From positions 1-56,448 of the IMG/VR virus record IMGVR_UViG_3300046804_006442: a DNA stretch of 56,448 nt. One strand, given 5' to 3'. Positions 16,628-30,995 of the stretch are shown piece after piece (position 1 is the first letter of the stretch; the number at the start of each line of letters is the position of its first letter). A model generated the notes under the pieces. That model saw only the letters and a program-made list of their open reading frames with translations. It was not told where the DNA came from and made no database searches. Origin of the DNA: a virus (Duplodnaviria > Caudoviricetes). The translations under genes were made by a program, and so were the position numbers.

Positions 16628-16656
16628 TTGACGCGGTATAAATAAACCAGTAACAT
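16628..16656 (+). promoter_or_regulatory. sigma70-like promoter overlapping a TATAAATA motif
   Basis: TTGACG-17 nt-TAACAT; TATAAATA at 16637-16644. Confidence 0.55.
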
Positions 16657-16666
16657 AGAGCACATA

Positions 16667-16813
16667 ATGATTTCAAAACTTTCACATATATCGAAACTCG
16701 GGCACTTTATGCCATCATGCCAACCCACATGGGCCGGCTTGGTGCTGGATTATACCCGTGGAATCGAGAATAGTGCGAGTCGGGGGTCTGAGTGTGCAGA
16801 TAGGGACAAGTAG
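16667..16813 (+). CDS. putative attenuator leader peptide (48 aa) MISKLSHISKLGHFMPSCQPTWAGLVLDYTRGIENSASRGSECADRDK
   Basis: Hand-translated; codons 7-37 are 31 different codons covering all 20 aa; contains antiterminator segment GGGGTCT. Confidence 0.6.
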   Translation: MISKLSHISKLGHFMPSCQPTWAGLVLDYTRGIENSASRGSECADRDK

Positions 16814-16835
16814 CAAATAATCCCAAAATGGACAT

Positions 16836-16875
16836 AAAAGACCCCAGGACTAAACACCCTGGGGTTTTTCGTTTT
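16836..16875 (+). terminator. intrinsic terminator/attenuator
   Basis: AGACCCCAGG-9 nt loop-CCTGGGGTTT followed by T-rich tail. Confidence 0.8.
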
Positions 16876-16899
16876 AGTATCAAGTATTTGCAGTCAAGG

Positions 16900-16928
16900 T
16901 TGACAAGTAACATGTGATGCGGCATAAT
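16900..16928 (+). promoter_or_regulatory. sigma70-like promoter
   Basis: TTGACA-17 nt-CATAAT. Confidence 0.6.
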
Positions 16929-16989
16929 TGCACCACGCTAACAACGTGAGGTAATGATTGCAACAGAGTCAACCTGGTAACAACGTAAC

Positions 16990-17180
16990 AAGTGTGAGGG
17001 AACGCGACCCTGCCGGCACTCAAAACATCGGCTGTAATGTGGGCGGCCTACCGGATGAGAAGTTCCTGGCGATAACGGGAATGGTAAAAAGGTAGCGTAA
17101 TAAAGCATATAGGGCTGGCGACTAAGCCGGGGAGAAATCCCAAACTGTATGCTTTATTACACACATTCTACGGAGTGTGT
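16990..17180 (+). ncRNA. unassigned structured RNA at head of tRNA array
   Basis: Several stems, including a perfect 13-bp GTAATAAAGCATA/TATGCTTTATTAC and an ACACATTC-TACG-GAGTGTGT hairpin; no ORF. Confidence 0.45.
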
Positions 17181-17190
17181 TGAACGATTT

Positions 17191-17283
17191 GGGTGTCTTG
17201 ATGCTATGGCGTGTGCATCCCCGGACTGTAAATCCGGTCCCTCGTGGTAAACAATCGCGGTTCGAATCCGTGGACACCCACCA
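17191..17283 (+). tRNA. tRNA-Tyr(GTA)
   Basis: GGGTGTC/GACACCC acceptor, CCGGA-CTGTAAA-TCCGG, CCA. Confidence 0.88.
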
Positions 17284-17288
17284 AAATT

Positions 17289-17375
17289 AGGCTTGACTAG
17301 AAATGGTTTCTTACTCTCACGAAGACCGGTCACTACATGAGAGAGTAGGTGGTTCGATTCCACACTAGCCCACCA
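17289..17375 (+). ncRNA. tRNA-like RNA without clear anticodon
   Basis: T-arm GTGGTTCGATTCCAC and ACCA end; TACTCTC/GAGAGTA stem. Confidence 0.45.
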
Positions 17376-17449
17376 AATCAATACGGCGCGTAGGAGACCC
17401 TCGCGATCCGGATACTTCCGGATGATTCTCTTACAGCCGGACCTTTTAT

Positions 17450-17526
17450 CGGTGTATAGCGCAGCCTGGCAGCGCGTCGGTCTGGGGGACCGAAGGTCGT
17501 CGGTTCGAACCCGGCTACACCGACCA
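17450..17526 (+). tRNA. tRNA-Pro(GGG)
   Basis: Cloverleaf, TCGGT-CTGGGGG-ACCGA, CCA. Confidence 0.93.
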
Positions 17527-17534
17527 ATTTCAAT

Positions 17535-17612
17535 GGTGACTGTCAGCAAGCGGCCTAAGCCTGCGGACTGTGACTCCGCAATTCGTGGGTTCGAATCCCA
17601 CCAGTCACCCCA
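17535..17612 (+). tRNA. tRNA-His(GTG)
   Basis: G-1/C73, GCGGA-CTGTGAC-TCCGC, CCA. Confidence 0.93.
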
Positions 17613-17619
17613 AAGATTT

Positions 17620-17715
17620 GCTCCTCAGCACTCGGCGTGCGGCGCGCCCTTATAAAGCGCGGAGACCGGTCAGATGGGCTGGAACGGCAGGGTTCGAAAC
17701 CCTGGGGGAGTACCA
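17620..17715 (+). tRNA. atypical tRNA, TAT anticodon (Ile by anticodon), long variable arm
   Basis: GCTCCTC/GGGGAGT acceptor, short GCAC/GTGC D-arm, CTTATAA loop, T-arm, ACCA. Confidence 0.7.
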
Positions 17716-17726
17716 ATATAAAATAT

Positions 17727-17803
17727 GGCCCAGACGCATAAATGGTGGTGCACCGGTCTCCAAAACCGGATAAGAGGCGGTTCGATCCCGTCCTGGGTCG
17801 CCA
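17727..17803 (+). tRNA. tRNA-Trp(CCA)
   Basis: CCGGT-CTCCAAA-ACCGG, CCA. Confidence 0.92.
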
Positions 17804-17808
17804 TTTTT

Positions 17809-17884
17809 GCCCTTGTAGCTCAGTTGGCAGAGCAGCGGTTTTGTAAACCGAAGGTCGGGAGTTCGAGACTCTCCGGGGGCACCA
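17809..17884 (+). tRNA. tRNA-Thr(TGT)
   Basis: Cloverleaf, TTTGTAA loop, CCA. Confidence 0.93.
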
Positions 17885-17892
17885 ATTTTATC

Positions 17893-17968
17893 GCCAGTGT
17901 AGCTGAGATGGATTAGCGCCTGCCTGAAGAGTAGGAGGAGGTTGGTTCGATACCAACCGCTGGCACCA
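17893..17968 (+). tRNA. tRNA-Phe(GAA)
   Basis: CCTGC-CTGAAGA-GTAGG, CCA. Confidence 0.92.
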
Positions 17969-17977
17969 ATATCAAAT

Positions 17978-18052
17978 GGATCGTGAGCAGCTGGCGCAGG
18001 CGACTGGCCCTTCAAGCCGGGAAGAGGAGTTCGAATCTCCTACGATCTACCA
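17978..18052 (+). tRNA. atypical tRNA-Glu(TTC) with C33
   Basis: CTGGC-CCTTCAA-GCCGG, T-arm, CCA. Confidence 0.75.
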
Positions 18053-18056
18053 ATCG

Positions 18057-18132
18057 GTTCCCATCTTCTAGAGGCCTAGGAAAACCGCCTTTCACGCGGT
18101 CAACGGGGGTTCGAATCCCCCTGGGAACGCCA
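18057..18132 (+). tRNA. tRNA-Glu(TTC)
   Basis: ACCGC-CTTTCAC-GCGGT, CCA. Confidence 0.93.
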
Positions 18133-18147
18133 CTACAAGGAGAGATC

Positions 18148-18552
18148 ATGGATGTAATCAAGACCTACAATGCCCTGCAGGGGCCGGTGCGTGAGTTCCG
18201 CGAACTCCGGGGTCGTATACTGTGCCGCGCCGAGCAGGACGGCGAAGAGCTACGCCTGTATCTCACCGACGACCACTACGTGAGATTGTATCACGCCCAG
18301 GATTGCTGCGAGTCGGTCTGGATCGAAGACGTCTGTGGCGATCTCCAGGATCTCATAGGTGAGCCCTTGACCGAGGCCGAAGAAGTGCGGGGCTACACAG
18401 GTCCTGAACAAGATTACGAAAGTTATACCTGGACCTTTTACCGTTTTGGTACGCGTCGTGGTAGCGTTACTGTGCGTTGGTTGGGGCACAGCAATGGCTA
18501 CTACGGTGAAGGCGTAGATGTGGCCATCATAGGTGGTCCAGTGGAAGAATAA
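18148..18552 (+). CDS. conserved phage hypothetical protein (YHxQDCCESV motif)
   Basis: AAGGAG SD; QDCCESVWIED, TWTFY, SNGYY. Confidence 0.8.
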   Translation: MDVIKTYNALQGPVREFRELRGRILCRAEQDGEELRLYLTDDHYVRLYHAQDCCESVWIEDVCGDLQDLIGEPLTEAEEVRGYTGPEQDYESYTWTFYRFGTRRGSVTVRWLGHSNGYYGEGVDVAIIGGPVEE

Positions 18553-18553
18553 T

Positions 18554-18631
18554 GTCACCTTAGCTCAGTTGGACTAGAGCATCGGTCTACGAAACCGAGG
18601 GTCGGGAGTTCGAGTCTCTCAGGTGACGCCA
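18554..18631 (+). tRNA. tRNA-Arg(ACG)
   Basis: TCGGT-CTACGAA-ACCGA, CCA. Confidence 0.93.
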
Positions 18632-18637
18632 TACAAT

Positions 18638-18713
18638 GCCTGGTTGAGCAGAGAGGTTATGCACCTCCCTTACAAGGAGGACGATGTTGGTTCGAGTCCA
18701 ACACCAGGTACCA
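18638..18713 (+). tRNA. tRNA-Val(TAC)
   Basis: CCTCC-CTTACAA-GGAGG, CCA. Confidence 0.92.
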
Positions 18714-18720
18714 ATTATAT

Positions 18721-18794
18721 GTCGGTGTGGCCGAATGCTGAGGCTGAGGTCTGCAAAACCTCCTATGCTGGTTGGATTCCAGTCGCCGACTCCA
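18721..18794 (+). tRNA. tRNA-Cys(GCA)
   Basis: GAGGT-CTGCAAA-ACCTC, U73, CCA. Confidence 0.9.
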
Positions 18795-19548
18795 GACACA
18801 TTCGATTGAATTGTTCTATCCGTAGCAACAACTCATTTAAAGATATCGATGACTTCTTATTTTTACTTTGGTTATGTCGATGTGGAACAACTTGGCAGTT
18901 AGCAGGATGTGAGATTATAGTTGGGTCAACTTTATTGATGAACCCATCGCTAACTGAAAATAGGTGATCTCGAGAACATCCGTTAAGATTGTTACCTCGA
19001 TTTGATGCTGAATACCACCCATATTCAGAAATAAGAGACGATACATTAGAAAACCATTGTGGATATGAGCTCAGACTGAACTGAAATCGACATTGATACG
19101 CATAGGTCTTTTTATCTAATATTGTAGTTGGATGGATTGTTTTGATTGTAGGAGAATACCACTTTTTACCAGTTATTTTGCATGTGCAGAGATACACTCT
19201 AGTATGCGGGCCGCTTGCGTCCGGCAGCAATGTTGAACGCCTTTTCCGAGGTGCTTTTGGTTTTGGTGTTTTTGGTTTTGGCCCAGTAACAATCTTATCC
19301 CAATCTTTTTTGGAATTGTTATAAATCGCAGCACATGTTCTCCCACAAAACTTATTGGATTTCCTCCGTAGATATTCAATAGGTTTAGAACAGTTTTTAC
19401 ACAAGCACGGGCTTGACTCATACGCCTCAATTGATTTCTTATGTTTTACTTTACCATTGCGTTTACTAGAACAAGATAGAGAACAATATGTCCCGGTTGA
19501 TCCCGGGGATGGGGTAAAGAGTTTTTGGCAATAATAACAAGTTTTCAT
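18763..19548 (-). CDS. Zn-finger HNH-like homing endonuclease inserted antisense in tRNA array
   Basis: AT-rich; repeated CxxC..YCS/FCGxxC; C-terminal SRDH..HPANC..N; TAAATA upstream on minus strand. Confidence 0.75.
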   Translation of the reverse strand: MKTCYYCQKLFTPSPGSTGTYCSLSCSSKRNGKVKHKKSIEAYESSPCLCKNCSKPIEYLRRKSNKFCGRTCAAIYNNSKKDWDKIVTGPKPKTPKPKAPRKRRSTLLPDASGPHTRVYLCTCKITGKKWYSPTIKTIHPTTILDKKTYAYQCRFQFSLSSYPQWFSNVSSLISEYGWYSASNRGNNLNGCSRDHLFSVSDGFINKVDPTIISHPANCQVVPHRHNQSKNKKSSISLNELLLRIEQFNRMCLESATGIQPA

Positions 19549-19569
19549 AAAGTTATTTATGTTCAAAAC

Positions 19570-19606
19570 AGTATTAGTGTAGGTTCAAATCCAGCCCGTT
19601 GCTCCA
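19570..19606 (+). pseudogene. 3' half of a tRNA (T-arm + acceptor strand + CCA)
   Basis: GTAGGTTCAAATCCAGCCCGTTGCTCCA with no matching 5' half, directly after the endonuclease insert. Confidence 0.5.
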
Positions 19607-19614
19607 AGTTTCAT

Positions 19615-19689
19615 AGCCAGTTAGCTCAGCGGTAGAGCAATCGGTTGATAACCGATAGGTCATTGGTTCGATCCCAATATTGGCTACCA
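19615..19689 (+). tRNA. tRNA-Ile(GAT)
   Basis: ATCGG-TTGATAA-CCGAT, CCA. Confidence 0.93.
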
Positions 19690-19695
19690 AACACG

Positions 19696-19770
19696 GGTGA
19701 TATGGCCTAGACGGATGGGCACGGGACTCATAAGCCCGCGAGGTTGGATCGATACCAACTATCACCACCA
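19696..19770 (+). tRNA. tRNA-Met or Ile2 (CAT)
   Basis: CTCATAA loop, paired 1-72, CCA. Confidence 0.85.
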
Positions 19771-19771
19771 A

Positions 19772-19864
19772 GGAAGGGTTAGCCGAGATGGCCTAGCGGC
19801 GGCGGTTTCGAAAACCGCGGGCCCTGCGAGGGGCGTGTGAGTTCGAGTCTCACCTCTTCCGCCA
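19772..19864 (+). tRNA. tRNA-Ser(CGA)
   Basis: GCGGT-TTCGAAA-ACCGC, long V-arm, G73, CCA. Confidence 0.92.
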
Positions 19865-19870
19865 AAGAAT

Positions 19871-19967
19871 CTCAGCCCAGCAGACGTGCTGGGTATGATA
19901 ACTGCGCCTCCGATGTCACCGCGGGGGATGGAAATACCGGATTCGAGTCTCCGGTGCAACCGTTGAG
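19871..19967 (+). ncRNA. tRNA-like multi-stem RNA
   Basis: CTCAGC/GTTGAG closure, CCCAGCA/TGCTGGG hairpin, T-like ACCGGATTCGAGTCTCCGGT. Confidence 0.4.
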
Positions 19968-20002
19968 TCGGGAGAGAAAAACTAACAGGTGGCCGGAACA
20001 AT

Positions 20003-20074
20003 TGGGGTGAGACTGGAAGTCACACCTGCCTCTGAAGCAGGTTGGAGTTGGTTTGAGTCCAACCGCCCCCGCCA
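20003..20074 (+). tRNA. tRNA-Gln(CTG), reduced D-arm
   Basis: CCTGC-CTCTGAA-GCAGG, unpaired 1-72, GCCA. Confidence 0.82.
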
Positions 20075-20077
20075 GAT

Positions 20078-20169
20078 GGAGAGCTGCCAGAGCCCGGCTT
20101 AATGGCCCTGATTGGAAGTCAGTGGGCGCTGCAAGGCGCACAAAGGTTCGAATCCTTTGCTCTCCGCCA
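20078..20169 (+). tRNA. tRNA-Ser(GGA)
   Basis: TTGGAAG loop, long V-arm, GCCA. Confidence 0.9.
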
Positions 20170-20183
20170 TATATAACAACATC

Positions 20184-20257
20184 GCCCCCATAGTTAAATG
20201 GCATAACGCAGTCTTGGTAAGACTGAATAGAAAGTTCGATTCTTTCTGGGGGCACCA
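20184..20257 (+). tRNA. tRNA-Thr(GGT)
   Basis: CAGTC-TTGGTAA-GACTG, CCA. Confidence 0.93.
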
Positions 20258-20263
20258 GAATCT

Positions 20264-20351
20264 GGAAGAGTGGCAGAGTGGTTGAATGCACCGGTCTTGA
20301 AAACCGGCAGTCCTACGGGGCTCGTGAGTTCGAATCTCACTTCTTCCGCCA
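20264..20351 (+). tRNA. tRNA-Ser(TGA)
   Basis: CCGGT-CTTGAAA-ACCGG, long V-arm, GCCA. Confidence 0.93.
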
Positions 20352-20424
20352 GATGTGTTGCAACTAATCTTAGGGATTGAATGTTAGCCTAAGTTAAAAT
20401 GACAAAAATCATTCACAGATTTAT

Positions 20425-20503
20425 TCCCCATAATCCGAGCAAGGTGCACGGACGTGACTGTTAATCACTGACTAGCAAGGTTCAATTCCTTGATGGGGAG
20501 CCA
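20425..20503 (+). tRNA. tRNA-Asn(GTT)
   Basis: GTGA-CTGTTAA-TCAC, GCCA. Confidence 0.88.
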
Positions 20504-20510
20504 GAACAAT

Positions 20511-20596
20511 TGCGGGGTAGAGAGTAACGGTAGCTTGCGAGTCTCATAAGCTCGCGCCGCAAGGCCCAGGTGGTTCAATTCCATCCCCCGCTACCA
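20511..20596 (+). tRNA. initiator-like tRNA-Met(CAT) with extra variable-arm hairpin
   Basis: TGCGGGG/CCCCGCT with 1-72 mismatch, CTCATAA loop, GCC-GCAA-GGC V-arm. Confidence 0.82.
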
Positions 20597-20601
20597 AAAA
20601 T

Positions 20602-20676
20602 AGTCCCAAAGTGTTCATGGACGCATGCGAGCCTGTCACGCTCGAGGAAGGGGATCGTTACCCCTTGGGACTGCCA
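20602..20676 (+). tRNA. tRNA-Asp(GTC)
   Basis: CGAGC-CTGTCAC-GCTCG, GCCA. Confidence 0.9.
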
Positions 20677-20679
20677 GCA

Positions 20680-20780
20680 TTGAGATCGCACAGTAAAAAC
20701 AACGGGCGGGGTGTGCGGGTTCGATTCCCGGTTGAGGCGGGTGGAAGCCCGGCCTTGGCTGCGCCCAGATCTCAAGACCA
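20680..20780 (+). ncRNA. tRNA-like RNA with internal T-arm (possibly Y RNA/YrlA-like)
   Basis: TTGAGATC/GATCTCAA closing stem, central CGGGTTCGATTCCCG, ends ACCA. Confidence 0.45.
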
Positions 20781-20849
20781 GTACTCCTGTCACCACACCC
20801 TCACTGAGTAGCGCAGGGAAGGGCAGCGTGAGGGCTGCCCGAGAGTTTT

Positions 20850-20935
20850 GCCCCGGTGGTGGAATTGGCAGACACGCGAGCTTCAGGTGCTCGTGCTCAC
20901 AAGGCTTAGGAGTTCGAGTCTCCTCTGGGGCACCA
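20850..20935 (+). tRNA. tRNA-Leu(CAG)
   Basis: CGAGC-TTCAGGT-GCTCG, V-arm, ACCA. Confidence 0.93.
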
Positions 20936-20967
20936 AATACACAGCAGAATCAATGACTCGGCAGTGG

Positions 20968-20996
20968 TTGACCACAATCATCAAACTGCCTATAAT
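20968..20996 (+). promoter_or_regulatory. sigma70 promoter
   Basis: TTGACC-17 nt-TATAAT. Confidence 0.75.
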
Positions 20997-21015
20997 AGCG
21001 GCATAAGTTAGTAAT

Positions 21016-21028
21016 TGCTCTTTAACAA
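21016..21028 (+). promoter_or_regulatory. rrn-type boxA antitermination site
   Basis: TGCTCTTTAACAA, the rRNA-leader boxA consensus, 20 nt after the -10 box. Confidence 0.8.
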
Positions 21029-21029
21029 T

Positions 21030-21152
21030 GCGGCTTTATTCACATGCGCATCTGGGCACTCGGCCGATGCCCTGCATAGTGCAGCCGCGCTCCCTTGGGA
21101 GCGTTCGAGGTGGATGGTGAAAATCCATTGATGTGCAGTTGAATAAGGCTGT
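21030..21152 (+). ncRNA. long-stem multi-branch RNA
   Basis: GCGGCTTTATTCA/TGAATAAGGCTGT closing stem with three internal hairpins. Confidence 0.5.
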
Positions 21153-21250
21153 AACAGTTTATTGGAACATGTGGCGAGATTCCAAAGGGTCGGTGATGTG
21201 TAGTGCAGCATCTGCCAATAGTGACCAAACCACCTCTGAGTCCAAATTTT

Positions 21251-21410
21251 TTGTTAGATTGAAATGTGTTGCTAGTTTAAAGAAAACATGCTTGGCCCTA
21301 AGGCAGCGGTTTTCTCTAAAGGTCATGGGATACTGTGACCACGGAGTCGACCACTTAGTAGGCATATTGGGTGTGGGCAGTGCATCCGGCAGCATATTTC
21401 AATGTAACAA
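21251..21410 (+). ncRNA. long-stem RNA (ATTGAAA...TTTCAAT family)
   Basis: 22-bp closing stem with one mismatch. Confidence 0.5.
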
Positions 21411-21418
21411 TACAGTAG

Positions 21419-21490
21419 CCATATTGAAACACATTGGACCCCCGCAGGGGATGGTTGACAACAGGCTCATGCCAGTGTGTTTCGATATGG
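21419..21490 (+). ncRNA. long-stem RNA (ATTGAAACACATT...AGTGTGTTTCGAT family)
   Basis: 19-bp closing stem with G-U pairs. Confidence 0.5.
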
Positions 21491-21492
21491 TA

Positions 21493-21629
21493 ACAGGTGG
21501 CAGCATGAGCGTGGTGTGATCCTCGAGGTAAGCGCCCGGACATGCGCTCACTCGTGCAGAGCAGTCGGGCGGCCGCCCGGCCTCGGTGGAGTGAGAGATA
21601 TGGGTTCGATTCCCATCTACTTGTGACCA
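21493..21629 (+). ncRNA. enlarged tRNA-like RNA (~137 nt)
   Basis: ACAGGTGG/CTACTTGT acceptor-like stem, ATGGGTTCGATTCCCAT T-arm, CCA end, large central insert. Confidence 0.5.
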
Positions 21630-21728
21630 TATTGAAGCGCATTCAAACACTGTGGCCACAGTGCAGCTGGATGCAGGGTTATACTATGACCCGTTGGGTT
21701 CGATTCCCAGAGTGTGTTTCAATATGGT
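21626..21728 (+). ncRNA. long-stem RNA enclosing a cloverleaf-like module with T-arm
   Basis: ACCATATTGAAGCGCATTC/GAGTGTGTTTCAATATGGT 19 bp; TGGGTTCGATTCCCA inside. Confidence 0.55.
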
Positions 21729-21740
21729 ATTACCCTATAT

Positions 21741-21814
21741 GCGGGATTAGTTTAATGGTAAAACGAGTGCCTTCCAAGCACACGTCAGCGGTTCGATTCC
21801 GCTATCCCGCTCCA
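21741..21814 (+). tRNA. tRNA-Gly(TCC)
   Basis: GTGC-CTTCCAA-GCAC, TCCA. Confidence 0.93.
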
Positions 21815-21819
21815 GATTC

Positions 21820-22140
21820 TGGTTCTTGTCTATATAGCCTCGACCTGTAGGGTTCCGATCTCTACCACTGCCTGGCCCCAAAGCCGGGTCCAAAGATATT
21901 ATGTGAAATATATAGGTGGCATACCGGGACAAACGGCACAGCGGATTAGACACCTGCTGGGAACCGGACCCAATCCCTGAGTCCAGGCAGGTAGCCCTGG
22001 AACACTAGCGACAGTGAGTCAACGTGGAACTCAAACGTTGGGCGTGAAAGAGCCGGTGGTTGACTGTGACGAGCCGGTAAGGAAATGCGCAGCACGGAAC
22101 AGCGGACCCTAAACCAAGATCACGAAGGTCCATGTGATCA
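21820..22140 (+). ncRNA. unassigned ~320-nt structured RNA
   Basis: No convincing ORF; long-range TAGGGTTCCG/CGGACCCTA and CTGCCTGG/CCAGGCAG pairings. Confidence 0.45.
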
Positions 22141-22144
22141 TTTT

Positions 22145-22221
22145 GCCCTGGTGACGGAATTGGCATACGTACTGGTCTTAGAAGCCAGGTTTTGTGGGTT
22201 CGAGTCCCACCTGGGGCACCA
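22145..22221 (+). tRNA. tRNA-Leu(TAG), short variable loop
   Basis: CTGGT-CTTAGAA-GCCAG, ACCA. Confidence 0.9.
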
Positions 22222-22308
22222 TATTCAAGCACATTCTTGTTAGACTGAAACCCTGGTAGAATGCCGATTGGCCGCTTCCAACCCCGGGCATAGAGTGTGC
22301 TCCAATCT
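22222..22308 (+). ncRNA. long-stem RNA (AGCACATTCT/AGAGTGTGCT family)
   Basis: Same closing-stem motif as the 21419 and 21626 elements. Confidence 0.45.
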
Positions 22309-22400
22309 GGAGAGTTGGCTGAGTGGCTGAAGGCAGCGGTTTGCTAAACCGTCGACCGGGGAAACCCGGTCCATAGGTTCGAATCCTATACTCTCCGCCA
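22309..22400 (+). tRNA. tRNA-Ser(GCT)
   Basis: GCGGT-TTGCTAA-ACCGT, long V-arm, GCCA. Confidence 0.93.
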
Positions 22401-22475
22401 AAACACTATGGTTTCTGGATACCTGCATCCAGTGCCGGCGGGTAAGCCGCTATTTTTTCAATCACGAGGTGACGT

Positions 22476-22958
22476 ATGAAGATGAAACTAAACATCCCGG
22501 AAGTGGTTGAGTTCATAAGAGCCCAATCACCCGAAACCCGGATCTACCTGGGTTGCGACAGTGAACGCTATCGCGTTGACAATGTCTGGTATGCCGACTA
22601 CATTCTTGCCGTGGTCGTACACATGGACGGAAATCACGGCTGTCGCCTGTTTGGTGAGGTCGTGACCGAGCGTGATTACGATCAGCGGCGCGATAGGCCC
22701 GCTACCCGGCTCATGACCGAAGTCTACAAGATCTCGGAACTGTATCTCCAGCTGGCCGAAGTCCTGGAAGGACGGCATGTGGAAGTGCACCTCGACATCA
22801 ACCCCGACGAACAGTTCGGTTCCAGCTGCGTGATCCAGCAGGCCGTGGGTTATATCAAGGGTGTATGCAACGTCATACCCATGGTCAAGCCCGACGCTTT
22901 CGCTGCCAGCTATGCCGCTGACCGCCTCAAGCACGTCAGCAGCTACCGCGCAGCATAA
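22476..22958 (+). CDS. RNase H-like YkuK/DUF458 family protein
   Basis: IYLGCDS, RLMTEV, EVHLDIN, KPDAFAASYAAD. Confidence 0.85.
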   Translation: MKMKLNIPEVVEFIRAQSPETRIYLGCDSERYRVDNVWYADYILAVVVHMDGNHGCRLFGEVVTERDYDQRRDRPATRLMTEVYKISELYLQLAEVLEGRHVEVHLDINPDEQFGSSCVIQQAVGYIKGVCNVIPMVKPDAFAASYAADRLKHVSSYRAA

Positions 22959-23020
22959 TCTGACCCGCTTACACTAGCGGCATAAATCCAAGTGGAGGCC
23001 GGTGCAATCCCGGCCACGAT

Positions 23021-23094
23021 GCGGGCTTAGTTTAGTGGTAAAATCAGTCGTTGCCAACGATTAGTTGAGAGTTCGATTCTCTCAGCCCGCACCA
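23021..23094 (+). tRNA. tRNA-Gly(GCC)
   Basis: AGTCG-TTGCCAA-CGATT, CCA. Confidence 0.92.
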
Positions 23095-23109
23095 AACTAA
23101 TTACAATAT

Positions 23110-23628
23110 ATGGATACTCTACGATTACAGCTCGCCTGCACCTATTGCAATGGGTGGCCACGATTACGTGTACGATTGCAGAATGATCTCATATATGATT
23201 TCGCCCCGGACCAAGCCCAGGTCGATCTAGCAGTTGATTTGCCCCAGACTCCTGGACCCTGTTGGATCGAGATCGAGCGTTGGGGCAAGACCGCAGCAAA
23301 CACCCAAGACGGCGCGGATCAAGTCGTGGAGATCAAACAACTCTACGTTAATGACATGGCGATACCGCAATGGTTTTTATGGGGGAACAGTCAATTTCGT
23401 TTCAATGATCAATGCCAGCAATCGTTGATCATGGCGCCGAACGGTGTCTGGCGGTTGGATTTCGCGACCCCGCTGATCACCCACATATTGGATCAAAAGA
23501 TCCTGCACGAAGCTCAATACAACCAGGATTACCAATATCCCTGGAGTTATAAATTTGGTCCCGGGCAGACTGAAGAATTAGATCGAGAATTGGCGAACGC
23601 CATGGATCTGGTGAGGTCTAAGTTATGA
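23110..23628 (+). CDS. hypothetical protein coupled to radical SAM gene
   Basis: ATGA overlap with next gene. Confidence 0.7.
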   Translation: MDTLRLQLACTYCNGWPRLRVRLQNDLIYDFAPDQAQVDLAVDLPQTPGPCWIEIERWGKTAANTQDGADQVVEIKQLYVNDMAIPQWFLWGNSQFRFNDQCQQSLIMAPNGVWRLDFATPLITHILDQKILHEAQYNQDYQYPWSYKFGPGQTEELDRELANAMDLVRSKL

Positions 23629-25112
23629 CCCGGATATCCTGTGTTTCCGTGGATCTGGTCAATGCTGATAAACCTCCGGCCTCGCTGGCTTTTTTGGCCG
23701 CGGCCTGTGAGGAAGCCCAGGTCGATTATCAATGCATCAGTTTCAACGCTTGTTTTTTATCAAGATTTGACCAGTCTACCATGAGTCAAGTCTATAACAA
23801 CGTAATCAAGCTGGGTCGTACCGAACCAGTGATAGAGACACTAAACCCCGCGATCGCGGCTGTGGTATCCGACATCAAGAGCTATGGTTCTACCATCGTG
23901 TTGGTTTCGGTGTTTACCTTTATGCAGCACGATTTGGCCCGGCATTTCCTGACCCGGCTGCGGCAAGAATTACCGCAGGTCACTGTGGTAGTAGGTGGAC
24001 CAGGCACACCCAGCAGGTATCAAGAATACCCCACGTTTGGTAGATTTTTAGTGCAGCAAGGACTCGCGGATTTTTACTGCCTTGGTGAAGGCGATCGAGT
24101 GCTGCCAAGATTTTTAGCCGGTGAACGAGACCTAGTGGGTATAAACCATCCAGGATCGCCGGAGGAGACATGGGTACCGCAGATCGATGATCTGGATCGG
24201 GACTATCTGATTCCCAGTTACAAGAAAATACGTGTAGATGTATACAACAACCTCGAAAACAAAAACTCAGCGGTCTATCCAATCAACACCAGCCGTGGCT
24301 GCGTGAGAGATTGTTCTTTCTGCGACGTAGGTGCTACCTGGAAAAAATTCAGATTCCGCAGCGGACATCATGTGGCGCAAGAAATACTACAGCACCATCG
24401 GGATATCGGGGCGGTAAATTTTACTCTCGTTGACTCGTTGATAAACGGTAGCCTGAAAAGTTTCCGCGAGTTTAACGAACAGATGATCGATCTCAAGACC
24501 CAGCATCCCGGGCTCAAAGGATTCAGTTACAATGGCATGTTTATAGTCCGGGATCGGCGCAGTCATCCCGAAGATCTGTTCAAGACCATGGCCGAGGCCG
24601 GATGTGAGAGTTTGGCCATAGGTGTTGAGACCGGCAGTGATCGAGTACGGTTTGCCATGAATAAAAAATTCACCAACCAGGATCTCGATTGGCATTTTGA
24701 AATGTGTAGCAAATATCGGATCAAGAATGTGATGCTGATGTTTGTGGCCTATCCCACAGAAACCCGGGATGATTTCAACCAGACCCTGGCCATGTTGGAT
24801 CGATATCAAAAATATCTATTAGATGACACTATCTTGGGGATCAATGCCTCGGGCGTGTTTTCTTTGTTAGAGCATGCTCCGGTCTTTGAGAATCGTGAGC
24901 AACTGGGTATCGTTTTACAGAAAGATTGGAAACACCGGCGGCTACAATGGTTTAACCAAAATAATCCAGATCTCACGCTGCGTGAAAGAATCATGCGAGA
25001 TCTTGAATTCCGACGCCATGCGTTGAAACTAAGGTATCCTATACCTTATGCTCGGAGATATATGCAATATCTCGCCGAGATCGATGCTGACTTCGTGTTG
25101 CAAAGTGACTAA
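23625..25112 (+). CDS. B12-binding domain radical SAM protein
   Basis: PPASLAFL, VVGGPG, GEGD, TSRGCVRDCSFC, DSLING, GVETGS, YPTET. Confidence 0.9.
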   Translation: MTRISCVSVDLVNADKPPASLAFLAAACEEAQVDYQCISFNACFLSRFDQSTMSQVYNNVIKLGRTEPVIETLNPAIAAVVSDIKSYGSTIVLVSVFTFMQHDLARHFLTRLRQELPQVTVVVGGPGTPSRYQEYPTFGRFLVQQGLADFYCLGEGDRVLPRFLAGERDLVGINHPGSPEETWVPQIDDLDRDYLIPSYKKIRVDVYNNLENKNSAVYPINTSRGCVRDCSFCDVGATWKKFRFRSGHHVAQEILQHHRDIGAVNFTLVDSLINGSLKSFREFNEQMIDLKTQHPGLKGFSYNGMFIVRDRRSHPEDLFKTMAEAGCESLAIGVETGSDRVRFAMNKKFTNQDLDWHFEMCSKYRIKNVMLMFVAYPTETRDDFNQTLAMLDRYQKYLLDDTILGINASGVFSLLEHAPVFENREQLGIVLQKDWKHRRLQWFNQNNPDLTLRERIMRDLEFRRHALKLRYPIPYARRYMQYLAEIDADFVLQSD

Positions 25113-25115
25113 CAT

Positions 25116-25193
25116 CTGCCCTTAGCTCAGTGGACTCAGAGCAGTGAGCTTCTACCTCACGGGTCGGGGGTTCGAATCCCTCAGGGCGGACCA
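25116..25193 (+). tRNA. tRNA-Arg(TCT)
   Basis: GTGAG-CTTCTAC-CTCAC, CCA. Confidence 0.92.
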
Positions 25194-25224
25194 GTATTTG
25201 AATCGATAAATATTCCAATAAGGA

Positions 25225-25548
25225 ATGATTATGTCAACTACATTTAACTGGACCGTGGAGAAAATGATCTGCGCACCTGAACTCGAGGGTCACACAGATG
25301 TGGTAACATCGGTGATGTTCGCATGTGCGGGCACAGATGGTACCCACGGCGCAGAAATACGCGATACCTGCGCTATTCCATATCACGCTGATAGCTTCGT
25401 CGCTTATCAGGATCTTACCCAGGATCAAGTGCTGGCATGGTTGGATGCTCAAGGCATCAACCGTCCTTATATCGAACAATTGGTGCAGCAAAAGATCAGC
25501 GATCAATATCAAAATCTGCAGATCCAAGATCCGCCCTGGGTTTCTTAG
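25225..25548 (+). CDS. conserved phage hypothetical protein
   Basis: AAGGA SD; FVAYQDLTQDQVLAW..PPW motif common in small phage proteins. Confidence 0.75.
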   Translation: MIMSTTFNWTVEKMICAPELEGHTDVVTSVMFACAGTDGTHGAEIRDTCAIPYHADSFVAYQDLTQDQVLAWLDAQGINRPYIEQLVQQKISDQYQNLQIQDPPWVS

Positions 25549-25580
25549 ATCAGTAGCACCAACAGCGTAAATAGATTTAC

Positions 25581-25656
25581 GGGGGTATAGCTCAGCTGGG
25601 AGAGCGCTAGCTTTGCAAGCTAGATGTCGTCAGTTCGATCCTGACTACCTCCACCA
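25581..25656 (+). tRNA. tRNA-Ala(TGC)
   Basis: G3-U70, CTAGC-TTTGCAA-GCTAG, CCA. Confidence 0.94.
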
Positions 25657-25660
25657 AATT

Positions 25661-26113
25661 ATGTTTGAACTACGAACCAAAACAAGATCATGTGGGGGCT
25701 GCACCCGGTGCTGCGAAGGTTGGCTCACCGGCGATGCCTGGGGACATCAATTCCACCCCGGTAAGCCCTGCGGTTGGTTGTGCCGGTCGGGTTGCCTCAT
25801 ATATGAGAACCGGCCCCGCAATCCTTGCCAGACCTTCTTGTGCGAGTGGAAACGCCTGCCCAGCATACCCGAGTGGATGCGGCCCCAGGAATCTGGGGTC
25901 ATACTGGTATCGCGGCGCTTGGATGAATACAGTTATATACGCGCCCATGCCTGCGGTCGCCCTGTGGAGCCGAAGGTCTTGACCTGGGCCCAGGAATACA
26001 GCGATCAGCATCAGGTGCCGGTCATAGTAGATGCTGACACAGGTGTTTGGTGTTTTAGCCCCGAATCAGGATTCCGGATCGCGGCAGCCAATTTATGGAA
26101 TTTGGTAAACTAG
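25661..26113 (+). CDS. YkgJ-like CxxCxxCC Fe-S/Zn cluster protein
   Basis: CGGCTRCC..C..L...GC.IYENRP..C..F.C. Confidence 0.8.
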   Translation: MFELRTKTRSCGGCTRCCEGWLTGDAWGHQFHPGKPCGWLCRSGCLIYENRPRNPCQTFLCEWKRLPSIPEWMRPQESGVILVSRRLDEYSYIRAHACGRPVEPKVLTWAQEYSDQHQVPVIVDADTGVWCFSPESGFRIAAANLWNLVN

Positions 26114-26116
26114 CGG

Positions 26117-26177
26117 TTGACCTGTAGCGTCAACTCACATATACTAGAGACTATTGCAGTAAACGTTCTTTTACAAA
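26117..26177 (+). promoter_or_regulatory. sigma70 promoter plus boxA-like site
   Basis: TTGACC-17 nt-TATACT; CGTTCTTTTACAA about 20 nt downstream. Confidence 0.65.
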
Positions 26178-26185
26178 TTAGGAAT

Positions 26186-27085
26186 TAGGGGAGTTTGATC
26201 TCCTCCCGAAGCGAAAGCCTAGGGGAAGGATAAGCCTGGTGACAGGCCCAAAGCGGTAGCGTCCTACACGCCCGCGCTGGCAACAGTCCGATCAAGCAAG
26301 CCTGCTCACTGTGGTGACACAGCGATCACTGATAAGACCGGTGGTTGTAACAGCAAAGCTGGTGCGGGGGGAACGACACATATCGACTGGCCCGCAAGGG
26401 AACCAGGGTATGTGAAAAGTAACGGGTGGTGCCGACTTCCCAGCAAAACCAATCAGCTAACTGGTATGAGAAAGGGTAGTGCAAGGGTCCAAGGGGTCGC
26501 TCCCAAGGGCTGGTTGTGCAGTCGGAGTGGTTGGTGGATAGGCCGAGACCGGAGTAAAATCCGTATGCCGACGACACTGATCGCGAAAGACGTCTGAGTA
26601 GCCCGCGGGGCCAAAGGAACGTGGTGTGTTGTATCGTGTATTCCAAAAGAGTGCGCGGCAACAGGAACGGCACATCACAGTAGGTTGATATAGCTCAATG
26701 GTAGAGCAACTCCATTTAAAGGAGTCGGCTGTGGGTTTCGATACTCACTATCGATTAAAAATGCAAAGCCCGTTCCCGGTAATAACGAAAATGGCCTAAT
26801 ACTTGACACGCAAGTGAATCAAGTTACTCAAATGCCGCAAGCAGATGAGCATTGACTAGGATAGTGTCGTAAGAGTTTAGCGACTTTGAACTGCTCGCAA
26901 GGCAGACGAAACTTGAATAATCGAGTAGTTATTACTGTAACGAGAAACGCAACTCGTCAAATGCGGCCATGGTATCAGACTTACTTACCGCAAGGGAGTA
27001 AGTGGATGATGGAGGAAAGTTTCCCGCAAGGAAATTATAATCTCCTGAAGTGATACTGCGATTCTGTGTAATCTCAGCAGATTCA
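26186..27085 (+). ncRNA. GOLLD-like giant structured RNA (~900 nt)
   Basis: No + strand coding; many GCAA/GAAA-capped hairpins; internal tRNA-like module; own promoter; tRNA-array context typical of GOLLD; boundaries approximate. Confidence 0.6.
26683..26756 (+). tRNA. tRNA-like module with TTA anticodon embedded in the large RNA
   Basis: TAGCTCAATGGTAGAGC D-arm, ACTCC-ATTTAAA-GGAGT, T-like arm, no CCA. Confidence 0.6.
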
Positions 27086-27162
27086 CCTTTCCGTTATAAA
27101 TAATAGTGTAGTTCGCGGGATTGGCGTCCCCAACTACTCTAATGCTTAGACGGAGCACCAGG

Positions 27163-27729
27163 ATGTGTATTTACTGTAATACAAAAAACTACCGTAAGAT
27201 CTACGAAAACCATATCGGTCCTATTACTTTAGATTGTGATGGGCGTAGTTTAGAAATCCATCACTGTGATGGAAATCATAATAATAACCATCCAGATAAT
27301 CTCAAACTGGTGACTATACAAGAACATTATGAAATTCATCGTTCTCAAGGAGATTGGGCGGCATGTAAACTAATTTCAAGCAGAATGCGTATTTCAATTC
27401 AAGAACATAAACAGGAACTAAGTCGTGCAACAACTGAGGCAAATTTGCAAAGAGTCAAGGACGGAATTCATCCGTTTATTGGCCCAATGTTGAATCAATC
27501 TAGGATTGAAAAAGGCACTCATAACTTTTTAGGTCCCGAAAATAATAGAAAAAGAGTGATAGAAGGCAAACATAATTTTCTCGGTAAATCAAATACACAA
27601 AAGCAATTAGCAGAAGGAAAACATCCTTCTCAAAAGACTTGGAAATGTCCTTATTGTAATAAAGAAGGTCGTGGTACAGGGATATATTCAAGATATCATG
27701 GTAATAAATGTAAGTTCAAAACAATCTAG
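27163..27729 (+). CDS. HNH homing endonuclease
   Basis: AT-rich; YRKIYE, EIHHCDGNHNNNHPDNL..EH..IH; repeated G.HNF; terminal CPYC..HGNKCK. Confidence 0.85.
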   Translation: MCIYCNTKNYRKIYENHIGPITLDCDGRSLEIHHCDGNHNNNHPDNLKLVTIQEHYEIHRSQGDWAACKLISSRMRISIQEHKQELSRATTEANLQRVKDGIHPFIGPMLNQSRIEKGTHNFLGPENNRKRVIEGKHNFLGKSNTQKQLAEGKHPSQKTWKCPYCNKEGRGTGIYSRYHGNKCKFKTI

Positions 27730-27802
27730 GGGATTCGCCAAGTGGTAAGGCATCGGATTTTGATTCCGACATTCGGTGGTTCGATCCCATCATCCCCTGC
27801 CA
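27728..27802 (+). tRNA. tRNA-Gln(TTG)
   Basis: TCGGA-TTTTGAT-TCCGA, GCCA. Confidence 0.92.
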
Positions 27803-27820
27803 AAATAACAAAGGAGCCAG

Positions 27821-28033
27821 ATGTACAAAGTCTACTGGACCGATAGTCAAGGTCAATCACATGGTCACGAGCATGACAGCATCACTGAGATGCTGGCGCA
27901 TAGCCGACGTCTGCGTGAACAACCGGGCATGAGGTTCATAACCACAGTGGGAGAAGATCCCAACTGTACAAGTCTGCAGGGCGCCACAGATGTGCCCGGC
28001 GATTACACATGGATGAAACGGAGAACTCGATGA
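27821..28033 (+). CDS. hypothetical protein
   Basis: AAGGAG SD; YTWMKRR end. Confidence 0.75.
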   Translation: MYKVYWTDSQGQSHGHEHDSITEMLAHSRRLREQPGMRFITTVGEDPNCTSLQGATDVPGDYTWMKRRTR

Positions 28034-28117
28034 AACGAGGTAAACGCTAGTGTCATCCTAGATCCCATCGTATGGTCTAGGGTTGGCACGTTAAATCAAC
28101 TCTATACGATCAACGAT

Positions 28118-28205
28118 GGGACTGTAGTCGAGTGGCTGAAGACACCGGACTTTTAATCCGGCATCCGAAAGGACATCGTGGGTTCGAATCCCACCGGTCC
28201 CACCA
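28118..28205 (+). tRNA. tRNA-Lys(TTT) with long variable arm
   Basis: CCGGA-CTTTTAA-TCCGG; TCC-GAAA-GGA V-arm; ACCA. Confidence 0.85.
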
Positions 28206-28211
28206 TCAAAC

Positions 28212-28286
28212 GGGGTGTAAACTTTGATGGTGAAGTCCTGCCTCTTAAGCAGCGAGAACCCAGTTCGAGTCTGGGCCACCCCACCA
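28212..28286 (+). tRNA. tRNA-Lys(CTT)
   Basis: CTGC-CTCTTAA-GCAG, CCA. Confidence 0.85.
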
Positions 28287-28292
28287 ATTCCA

Positions 28293-28368
28293 GCCCTGTT
28301 AGCTCACCGGGTAGAGCGCCTGTTTCGTAAATAGGAGGTAGGCAGTTCGAGACTGTCACAGGGCACCA
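28293..28368 (+). tRNA. tRNA-Thr(CGT)
   Basis: CCTGT-TTCGTAA-ATAGG, CCA. Confidence 0.92.
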
Positions 28369-28374
28369 AATTCA

Positions 28375-28403
28375 TTGACATCCAGGTCCGGAGTCAGTAT
28401 AAT
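28375..28403 (+). promoter_or_regulatory. consensus sigma70 promoter, likely leaderless mRNA
   Basis: TTGACA-17 nt-TATAAT; ATG 7 nt after the -10 box. Confidence 0.8.
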
Positions 28404-28409
28404 TACTAG

Positions 28410-28910
28410 ATGACCCAACTAATACATACTCTTGACCCTGCATTACTTGCCGAAGGACTGCCAGACACTCGCTATGACGAGTCTCCTTTCCGCAATCTCA
28501 AAACCCTGGGACCTAGAACCAAAGGCACTAGATTTGAAAATATAACCATAGCTCTCATGCAACAGCTGGGCCATAGTTACAAAAAACGCATTGGTACCGA
28601 TAATGATGCGGTATTCGATGAGGTCTGTTACGAGATCAAGGGTAGCCTACTAGGGCGAGACCATAACAAATTTACTTTCCTCCAAATCAGACCTGATCAA
28701 AACTATGATGCTATACTTTTTTCTATGTTTTATCCGCATCGAGTTATTCTCATGACCATGGATAAATCAACTGTCATAAAAAATATTTCTTCCAAGATAT
28801 TTAAAAAACAGCATGGCGGGGCCAAGGCAAATTCTGGCACCTATAGCTATTACGGAAACGAGAATACCCTGGCGCAGATCGGTGCTCGGATTTTACATGA
28901 AATTGAGTAA
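28410..28910 (+). CDS. PD-(D/E)xK restriction endonuclease-like protein
   Basis: KGTRFE, DAVFD..YEIKGS, FLQIR; overlaps a methyltransferase. Confidence 0.65.
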   Translation: MTQLIHTLDPALLAEGLPDTRYDESPFRNLKTLGPRTKGTRFENITIALMQQLGHSYKKRIGTDNDAVFDEVCYEIKGSLLGRDHNKFTFLQIRPDQNYDAILFSMFYPHRVILMTMDKSTVIKNISSKIFKKQHGGAKANSGTYSYYGNENTLAQIGARILHEIE

Positions 28911-29826: not shown

Positions 29827-29833
29827 AGGAATA

Positions 29834-29909
29834 CGGTGTGTAGCTCAGTTGGCAGAGCGCGACGTTTGGGACGTTGAGGCCGGGAGTTCGAGACTCTCCA
29901 CACCGACCA
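29834..29909 (+). tRNA. tRNA-Pro(TGG)
   Basis: CGACG-TTTGGGA-CGTTG, CCA. Confidence 0.93.
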
Positions 29910-29914
29910 ACATT

Positions 29915-29991
29915 GCCCCTGTACGCCAGTGGACTAGACTACCTCGCTTCGAACGAGGGAGACGGAGGTTCGAATCCTTCCAGGGGCGCCA
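29915..29991 (+). tRNA. tRNA-Arg(TCG)
   Basis: CCTCG-CTTCGAA-CGAGG, CCA. Confidence 0.9.
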
Positions 29992-30064
29992 GTTTTGCCA
30001 GATCGGTCGCGCCGGCAGCAGCGACCATCTATAATCACTCTAACATCAATACACAAGGAAAAAT

Positions 30065-30628: not shown

Positions 30629-30661
30629 CGAGTTTGGACGCAGGGTTCCGGCCCTGCGTCC

Positions 30662-30904: not shown

Positions 30905-30913
30905 TCTTTTTTT

Positions 30914-30989: not shown

Positions 30990-30995
30990 GTATAT

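Follow-up and report, generated by a model that had tools for sequence, protein, structure and literature searches.

A leader unit upstream of a viral tRNA array

The stretch of DNA analysed here (the window, 56,448 nt) is one entire viral record of IMG/VR, IMGVR_UViG_3300046804_006442, whose completeness rating of 16% makes it a fragment of a phage of about 350 kb, that is, of an uncultivated huge phage. From 17191 on, its plus strand carries 42 transfer RNA (tRNA) genes and a transfer-messenger RNA (tmRNA) gene, and 5′ of these lies the unit that is the subject of this study, which consists of a sigma70-like promoter, a short leader open reading frame (ORF), an RNA helix that begins within the ORF and could act as an antiterminator, and an intrinsic terminator (Table 1). 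A preliminary description, made from the letters of the window, had read this unit as a candidate ‘pan-codon’ attenuator, in which a leader sampling many different codons controls transcription into the tRNA genes. Comparison with related units in other viral contigs supports the idea of attenuation, and we consider it probable that the unit is a ribosome-mediated transcription attenuator heading a phage tRNA operon, whose leader ORF evolution has shaped into an almost minimal ‘covering set’ of the genetic code.

Every statement that the preliminary description made about the sequence is correct at its coordinates. The promoter is indeed followed by an ORF of 48 codons and a TAG stop; a codon count finds codons 7–37 to be 31 distinct codons which encode all 20 amino acids; and GGGGTCT near the end of the ORF is complementary, across a separation of 49 nt, to AGACCCC (16839–16845), with which the 5′ arm of the terminator begins. 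The terminator was listed on the minus strand only by a hairpin scan with an 8-nt loop limit; folding gives the hairpin on the plus strand. As had been noted, no Shine–Dalgarno sequence precedes the ATG, which starts 10 nt past the −10 hexamer and so leaves the transcript near-leaderless, and the second sigma70-like promoter beyond the terminator is present as well, as are the 42 tRNA genes of the array.

Table 1. Coordinates of the leader unit and of the elements that follow it in the window.
Feature	Position	Strand	Remarks
Sigma70-like promoter	16628..16656	+	TTGACG, 17 nt, TAACAT; 9/12
Leader ORF	16667..16813	+	48 codons + TAG; 20/20 amino acids; internal Met at codon 15; 31/32 codon classes
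Small hairpin in ORF	16701..16713	+	GGCA / TGCC; internal AUG at loop–stem edge; read by eye
P1 5′ strand, GGGGTCT	16783..16789	+	inside ORF, starting 28 nt before stop codon
Inner antiterminator helices P2, P3	16792..16836	+	P3 = 16803–16806 with 16821–16824; from a fold of 16780–16857
Intrinsic terminator	16839..16875	+	5′ arm 16839–16848, loop ACTAAACAC 16849–16857, 3′ arm 16858–16867, T tract to 16875
Window-specific insert	16876..16984	+	sigma70-like promoter at 16900–16928, 11/12
‘Array-head’ RNA	16985..17190	+	about 200 nt, structured, conserved; ends at first tRNA
tRNA array	17191..36147	+	42 genes; anticodons cover all 30 codon classes scored (ATA, ATG excluded)

Taken alone, the run of distinct codons is a modest extreme and not compelling, because it barely beats its runner-up: among the 20,311 maximal distinct-codon runs in the six frames of the window it ranks first with 31 codons, the next run has 29, and six runs reach at least 28. 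Codons were also grouped into 32 classes (NNY or NNR for each first-letter pair, plus ATA, ATG and TGG), a scheme of our own that corresponds roughly to decoding classes. The leader of the window covers all of these except GTY. The 28,056 stop-free 48-codon frames of the window have a mean of 22.8 classes, and just three of them reach 31, all starting at 16661–16667, on the leader itself. Between two tRNA genes, at 21509–21713 on the plus strand, 48-codon frames attain 30 of the 32 classes; this place was rejected as a second leader and is taken as chance, there being no ATG-led leader-like ORF there. The small hairpin within the leader ORF is possibly a pause or structural hairpin: relatives swap its stem when judged by eye (alignment A7), yet RNAalifold gives no consensus pair there.

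Recurrence of the unit in other viral contigs

The arrangement of promoter, ORF of about 46 codons, antiterminator and hairpin terminator upstream of same-strand tRNA arrays is found in about 90 other viral contigs, which were assembled as two sets. Set 1 comprises the 61 viral contigs that share an identical 19-nt hairpin core with the window, and was thus ascertained through the hairpin. Its 62 hairpin occurrences, that of the window included, comprise 50 with an ATG-started ORF ending 26–39 nt before the core, five cut by a contig end (L007, L015, L020, L040 and L045) and seven in another context (L008, L010, L033, L035, L047, L054 and L062), the last two groups being excluded from the counts. 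Set 2 was drawn without the leader, by means of a 17-letter motif of the downstream RNA, which gave 94 stretches, some of them loci of set 1; the 80 loci that were new were scanned, and a hairpin within five mismatches of the core is present in 44 of the 80, with a usable ORF in 42 of the 44. Two loci were dropped, L111 for its 27-codon ORF in another frame and L130 because the contig start cuts the unit. The remaining 36 loci of set 2 are outside all counts; the motif-defined hairpin was obtained in five of the 34 that were scanned, while inspection by eye of 14 printed loci recognized the unit with another loop length in 13, L092 being an unrelated GC-rich match. Nine further loci from a separate pattern (L063–L071) were left out of the analysis. 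With identical units or peptides counted once, the two sets yield 78 distinct peptides.

Over the 78 distinct units the leader measures 34–55 codons, with a median of 46. A same-strand tRNA lies within 2.5 kb downstream in 68 of them, at a median distance of 404 nt; of the remaining 10, most are loci whose sequence stops too soon for a tRNA to be seen. Downstream of the relatives' units come arrays with as many as 41 tRNAs, and most loci have no tRNA upstream within the sequence examined. The ORF is kept in front of tRNA arrays in its position, length and frame despite divergence of the peptide, as the preliminary description had anticipated, and the possibility which that description had itself raised, of an ORF lacking conservation, falls away.

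Searches in other collections returned little. Cultured-phage records, searched with the region from the window in near and distant modes, contained nothing similar, and the L023 unit gave just two 21-nt matches at E = 1, which is noise. A degenerate pattern for the hairpin had no match in 185,579 prokaryote genomes. A profile built from 41 leader peptides and run against 5.8 billion proteins recovered seven proteins, all of them near members already known; because gene callers seldom call the leader ORF, this search gave no independent sample.

A kept frame and a drifting peptide

The reading frame of the leader is conserved to a degree that its peptide is not. In a nucleotide alignment of 36 units made blind to codons, all 19 distinct indel events within the ORF are multiples of three; in a noisier alignment of 43 sequences the same is true of 27 out of 40 events. 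The off frames are closed, with a mean of 3.6 stops in the +1 frame and 3.7 in the +2 frame, which are open in none and two respectively of the 43 sequences. At 60–70% nucleotide identity, codon positions 1, 2 and 3 differ at rates of 0.36, 0.36 and 0.37, and non-synonymous codon changes far exceed synonymous ones; with codon positions so nearly equal, purifying selection on the sequence of the leader peptide is not seen. Searches with 41 leader peptides found no Pfam or PHROG match, apart from one at chance level in each. Cysteine illustrates the pattern, since by eye it uses ten or more columns of the alignment: its presence is kept and its place is not. A non-coding small RNA would carry no constraint on frame, whereas here the frame, the start, the position of the stop and the codon content are all constrained.

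Among the 76 units whose upstream sequence is long enough, a TTGACN-16..18-TANNNT site is present in 31 and ends 2–10 nt before the first ATG in all but two of them (25 nt), a spacing that is the predicted layout of a leaderless or nearly leaderless mRNA. In 30 of these 31 promoter-type units the spacer of the promoter holds an ATAAATA-type motif (16637–16646 in the window), which we take to resemble the late-promoter element of phage T4. A second ATAAATA-type copy is found about 55 nt upstream in the window, at approximately 16583–16594.

Completeness of the leader

All 20 amino acids are present in 61 of the 78 distinct peptides. Completeness of this kind is reached by 2.2% of length-matched windows from long ORFs of the same loci, by nine of 1054 other small ORFs and by 3.3% of independent codon draws. 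Among the 41 peptides of set 1 there are 33 complete ones, as against 1.3 expected from the composition of the family (maximum of 7 in 5000 draws) and 4.4 expected when the columns of the alignment are shuffled (maximum of 11 in 2000). The count of every amino acid is under-dispersed in set 1, at about one or two each. Rare residues are absent from 0–5% of peptides for a binomial expectation of 22–33%; Cys, with a mean of 1.27 and a variance of 0.29, is lacking in 2% where 28% would be expected. An internal Met, which the sensing of elongator tRNA-Met would need, occurs in 77 of the 78 peptides.

Shared ancestry does not explain this completeness. When complete leaders were given random stop-free substitutions in a number equal to the distance from a real relative, the simulated copies were still complete in 21, 5 and 4% of cases at identities of 80–95, 65–80 and 50–65% respectively, compared with 87, 94 and 88% of the real relatives.

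The diversity of codons goes beyond that of amino acids. Leaders cover a mean of 28.4 of the 32 codon classes and three of them reach 32/32, whereas windows of genes cover 22.0 (standard deviation 2.2) and attain 28 in 0.5% of cases. Synonymous resampling according to the usage of each phage, with the amino acids held fixed, gives a mean of 26.3 classes, and none of 300 resamplings attains the observed mean. Both codon boxes are used for Leu in 95%, for Arg in 89% and for Ser in 99% of leaders, versus expectations of 74, 58 and 92%. Non-redundancy of codons, proposed earlier as a point on which relatives might be compared, is thus a property of the family that exceeds what amino-acid content, codon usage and shared ancestry lead one to expect. 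In place of ‘pan-codon’, the leader is better described by its near-complete coverage of decoding classes together with the presence of all 20 amino acids. Classes missing from a leader are also more often without a tRNA of the phage (odds ratio 4.3, 15 loci), a comparison in which codon usage, and the truncation of arrays where a locus ends, act as confounders, and this gives only a hint of an association between leader classes and the phage's own set of tRNAs.

Terminator and antiterminator

The stem of the terminator has 10 bp and its loop 9 nt, and a T tract follows. In relatives beyond those with the identical core the stem covaries, occurring in six versions, and the loop stays near AYUARAMAC. 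The first seven nucleotides of the 5′ arm are at the same time the 3′ strand of P1, the helix formed by GGGGTCT and AGACCCC, which is the outer helix of a long interrupted hairpin. In the fold of the window the inner helices P2 and P3 lie within it and the stop codon (16811–16813) sits in the loop of P3; the same P1–P2–P3 layout appears in folds of L023, L013, L009, L039, L048 and L002.

The covariation between GGGGUCU and AGACCCC on which the preliminary description had wanted its proposal judged is borne out. When 42 units are aligned on an anchor, 94% of the P1 cells are paired and two positions show CG to UA double changes, and its covariation score of 0.180 compares with 0.105 for shuffles (attained by none of 500) and with 0.01–0.10 for partners slid out of register. 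Over the 78 units there are 22 different pairs of P1 strands, among them helices of 11 and 14 bp. The distance of the structures from the ORF is also kept: the gap between stop codon and hairpin is 22–36 nt (interquartile range 28–31), and P1 starts 6–34 nt before the stop codon in set 1, the reading of −53 in the rows for L016 and L034 arising because the script took an upstream G run.

As P1 and the terminator share one run of C residues they cannot coexist. Before the 3′ arm exists, P1 is part of the minimum-energy fold in 37 out of 44 units; once that arm is included, 28 of the 44 form the terminator and 11 retain P1. By these folds the switch is predicted to be balanced between terminator and P1. 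RNAalifold on the entire unit yields the terminator only, and neither the region 16400–17190 of the window nor the L023 unit matches T-box or any other model in Rfam at E ≤ 1. From an RNA library comes contig X17, of 203 nt, which spans 16705–16907 and so crosses the terminator, although carry-over of DNA is possible and the contig bears no information on ends or strand.

A proposed mechanism of attenuation

Three structural features of a leader attenuator are found here. A short in-frame ORF lies between the promoter and the regulated genes, an intrinsic terminator lies between the ORF and the genes downstream, and an exclusive antiterminator is present whose 5′ strand a ribosome could mask. 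Codons for a sensed amino acid are neither strung together nor over-represented; in place of runs there is completeness. From what the comparison shows, namely a frame that is kept, completeness that is maintained, two structures that covary and exclude each other, a geometry that is fixed and a place before tRNA arrays, we infer that the leader is translated and that termination is regulated, with a polarity and a signal that would follow from the anatomy of the unit together with the established logic of attenuation.

Host RNA polymerase would initiate at the promoter at 16628–16656, and a ribosome would initiate on the near-leaderless AUG and trail the polymerase. Left to itself, the RNA from 16783 to 16845 would fold into P1–P2–P3 with the stop codon at its tip, consuming the 5′ arm of the terminator, so that read-through would be the default. 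An unhindered ribosome arriving at the stop codon would unwind and cover the 5′ strands of P3 and P2 and would have just passed that of P1; AGACCCC would then pair with the adjacent 3′ arm, and transcription would end at 16868–16875. A ribosome delayed at any codon, be it by a missing or cleaved tRNA, by an uncharged tRNA or by poor initiation, would allow the antiterminator to form first, and the polymerase would proceed through the head RNA to the tRNA genes. A negative feedback loop would thereby be closed by what the array produces. With every amino acid, a Met besides the initiating one and 31 of the 32 codon classes present in the leader of the window, a shortfall of almost any one tRNA would register. 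No conserved protector hairpin is predicted, and so the default state would be read-through; an untranslated leader would likewise mean read-through, unlike the case of trp.

In its widest form the proposal is that huge phages carry a gauge of the entire tRNA pool in the form of a leader ORF under selection to hold each amino acid and nearly each decoding class once, in which a shortage of any single tRNA flips the antiterminator and switches on the viral tRNA array, and to this we give an even chance. Shortages might come from host shut-off, from starvation or from anticodon nucleases, and the array would refill the pool and by doing so shut itself off.

Elements between the terminator and the first tRNA

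The preliminary description had the leader switch the 42-tRNA array. The unit does lie upstream of the tRNAs, but the array-head RNA, often with a small protein gene before it, comes first. The head RNA is the first conserved element after the terminator and measures about 200–250 nt in L002, L013, L017, L023, L037 and about 60 other loci. Of the 68 units that have a nearby tRNA, 64 have the head RNA ahead of the first one, which is often a tRNA-Tyr. For 24 sequences RNAalifold predicts 36 pairs, 29 of them with compensatory changes, and a search of Rfam with the head RNA found no family at E ≤ 1. Some copies have a T arm like that of a tRNA in the variable tip of a long hairpin.

A conserved gene for a protein of 50–65 amino acids stands between terminator and head RNA in at least 17 loci, starting 21–31 nt past the hairpin core (for example L019:4383–4556, L060:931–1101 and L048:2652–2819). 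The protein is apparently helical and has a Shine–Dalgarno-like AAGGA upstream of its gene; searches of Pfam and PHROG gave no consistent family for it. The window has no copy of this gene between terminator and head RNA. What it has there is an insert of about 105–125 nt that is missing from its relatives, L002–L006 included; contigs from two metagenome runs (X18 and X19) join 16869/16875 to 16997 through 23–25 other letters.

Points against the proposed attenuator and alternative explanations

Several observations, some of which also feed the alternatives discussed below, weigh against the attenuator, all support for which is comparative. One clade makes up most of the sample, in that 58 of the 78 peptides fall into one cluster at 40% identity and there are just 10–19 independent clusters; of the 19 clusters at 50% identity, 11 average at least 19.8 amino acids. 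Seventeen of the 78 peptides are incomplete, and a clade with short ORFs (L005, L049, L053, L081, L085, L125 and L142) has 15–18 amino acids and 22–27 classes. Initiation is not obviously provided for, in that a Shine–Dalgarno sequence is lacking and, in 45 of the 76 units, the 60 nt nearest the ATG contain no sigma70-like promoter; these 45 show instead a hairpin and an A-rich AAGGA-type stretch upstream. The geometry of stalling is tight. All 20 amino acids are encoded before the start of P1 in 52 of the 78 peptides, with the last sensed codons only 4–6 codons before P1, so that a stall there might not free it; all 20 lie at least four codons upstream of P1 in just 10 of the 78, and Glu usually comes late. 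A conserved 1:2 protector hairpin was sought with RNAalifold over the body of the ORF, where no conserved pair is predicted.

Promoters beyond the terminator bear on the matter too. The promoter at 16900–16928 in the window outscores the leader promoter and would bypass the terminator, so that in the window the attenuated promoter could do no more than raise expression above a basal level. In 15 of 68 units (the window and 14 relatives) a sigma70-like site is present somewhere from the terminator to the first tRNA; such sites lie mostly near the 3′ end of the head RNA, and with bypass promoters of this kind the attenuator cannot be the sole control of the array. No sigma70-like site was found there in the other 53 of the 68 units, a scan which phage-specific promoters would escape.

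The conservation of the hairpin loop, finally, far exceeds what a terminator needs, and a sequence-specific factor may act on it. This raises the alternative of an RNA switch driven by a factor, in which a protein of the phage or the host reads the loop AYUARAMAC and the ORF is translated without being the sensor; in many relatives the small protein whose gene closely follows the unit could even be that reader. That the loop is identical in 61 contigs and nearly so elsewhere while the stem covaries speaks for such a factor, and the same hairpin ends unrelated genes in seven of its 62 occurrences. A loop resembling AYUARAMAC also occurs in a covarying hairpin of the head RNA, and the proximity of the small protein gene to the hairpin core in at least 17 loci fits the same idea, although the window itself has none in that position. 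The switch would nonetheless leave unexplained why the frame, the 20 amino acids and the roughly 28 of 32 codon classes are held against drift, and why the stop codon keeps a fixed distance inside the antiterminator. A protein reading the loop might drive or aid the switching; as an explanation of the unit we regard a factor-driven switch as unlikely.

A second alternative, to our minds distinctly unlikely, separates the unit from the array altogether: it would be an independent small gene, for a micro-protein or a dual-function small RNA, with the array transcribed from other promoters. The unit does possess its own promoter and a strong terminator, the sites after the terminator in 15 of 68 units could serve the array, and the 221-nt region folds better than its shuffles (z = −3.15). 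In the peptides a Trp is nearly invariant and a short DRTPE-like motif recurs, which means that some constraint on sequence exists, at the level of RNA or of peptide. A gene selected for its protein would not, however, be expected to accept substitutions almost equally at the three codon positions or to let its amino acids move as Cys does, nor to maintain a covarying helix that destroys its own terminator, and completeness of composition has no obvious use in a protein of 46 amino acids. The 53 units without a sigma70-like site ahead of the first tRNA also speak against it.

An attenuator of opposite polarity, in which efficient translation of the leader brings read-through and stalled or absent ribosomes bring termination, has in its favour that the minimum-energy fold of the full RNA from 16660 to 16880 contains the terminator, with GGGGUCU paired to the 5′ end of the ORF. 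We hold it to be highly improbable, because the 5′ strands of P1, P2 and P3 lie within the last 10 codons, so that a ribosome finishing the ORF must melt the antiterminator; the preponderance of P1 in folds made without the 3′ arm argues in the same direction, and a search for a conserved upstream partner of P1 found none. That the frame is spurious and its codon diversity an extreme picked after the fact from a large window, as the lead of only two codons over the next of 20,311 runs might suggest, is refuted by the comparative data and has a negligible probability, for the unit recurs with the same properties in about 90 contigs found through features other than the leader, namely the core of the terminator or the RNA that lies downstream.

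Comparison with known systems

The leader attenuators of enterobacteria (trpL, hisL, pheL, thrL and ilvL) are rich in codon runs, each leader for one to three amino acids, and regulate enzymes of biosynthesis. Like them, the phage unit has a short ORF behind its promoter, an intrinsic terminator and an alternative helix in which the 5′ arm of that terminator is engaged. In those leaders the position of the ribosome determines which structure forms, as it would in the phage. Attenuation at pheL and at the his leader is among the subjects covered in PMC3082878 and PMC4046918. In contrast to the enterobacterial leaders, the phage leader has no runs, uses each amino acid about once or twice and covers about 28–31 of the 32 codon classes. 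It differs from them also in preceding viral tRNA genes, in being near-leaderless and in that no conserved 1:2 protector hairpin is predicted for it.

In the leader of mycobacterial whiB7 and in the antibiotic-responsive leader peptides of resistance genes, stalling of the ribosome on a short upstream ORF relieves a terminator. What these ORFs sense is a drug or a single amino acid, and what they regulate is a transcription factor or a resistance gene; to our knowledge they are not composed so as to cover the genetic code. They are nearest in logic to the phage unit, as in both the signal would be general trouble with translation and not one end product. The whiB7 leader is treated in 10.1101/2023.06.02.543512. 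The phage leader is set apart from this type by covering the code and by preceding tRNAs.

The T-box binds one uncharged tRNA directly and needs no translation. It resembles the phage unit as a terminator/antiterminator switch that reports on the status of tRNA, and differs from it in that the phage element has a conserved ORF and, as stated above, matches no T-box model. In the attenuation of pyrBI the speed of the polymerase is set by UTP and a ribosome that follows closely prevents termination. There too it matters how far the ribosome lags behind the polymerase when the terminator is reached; the variable in the phage would be the speed of the ribosome, and a ribosome that arrives would favour termination. 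Phage tRNA arrays are common. Full-text searches of one literature library retrieved no description of a code-covering leader or of an attenuator before phage tRNA arrays.

Should the unit be such a gauge of the tRNA pool, no attenuator before it would have read the genetic code in its entirety, and it would give viral tRNA genes their first known regulatory circuit. A code-sampling leader would provide viruses with a simple read-out of the host's capacity for translation and would link the supply of tRNAs to the need for them, which bears on the arms race around defence systems that cleave tRNA. As a principle of attenuator design, the selected property would be completeness, where in known leaders it is repetition. 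The signature can be searched for, in the form of small ORFs whose amino-acid counts are under-dispersed and whose codons fall into nearly all classes, also upstream of other operons related to translation, and the element of about 210 nt might be used in synthetic biology to sense global tRNA charging. A by-product of the analysis is the structured RNA, widespread and covarying, that heads tRNA arrays with a length of about 200 nt and is absent from Rfam.

Other features of the window

A search of viral contigs with the protein encoded upstream of the unit (16167–16541) found no relatives. Within the array two tRNA-Tyr calls are unusually long, at 93 nt (17191–17283) and 96 nt (17620–17715), and one of them has the anticodon AUA; for the call at 17191–17283 Rfam gives a weak tRNA-Sec-like score of 28 bits, under the gathering score. 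A GOLLD RNA is found at 26621–27080, with 191 bits for a gathering score of 150, and inside it, at 26683–26757, lies a tRNA with the anticodon UUA, which would read the stop codon UAA. The tmRNA (46576–46960) scores both as the betaproteobacterial and as the permuted type and has the tag peptide ANDDLFAQAA; its betaproteobacterial character may hint at the host of the phage.

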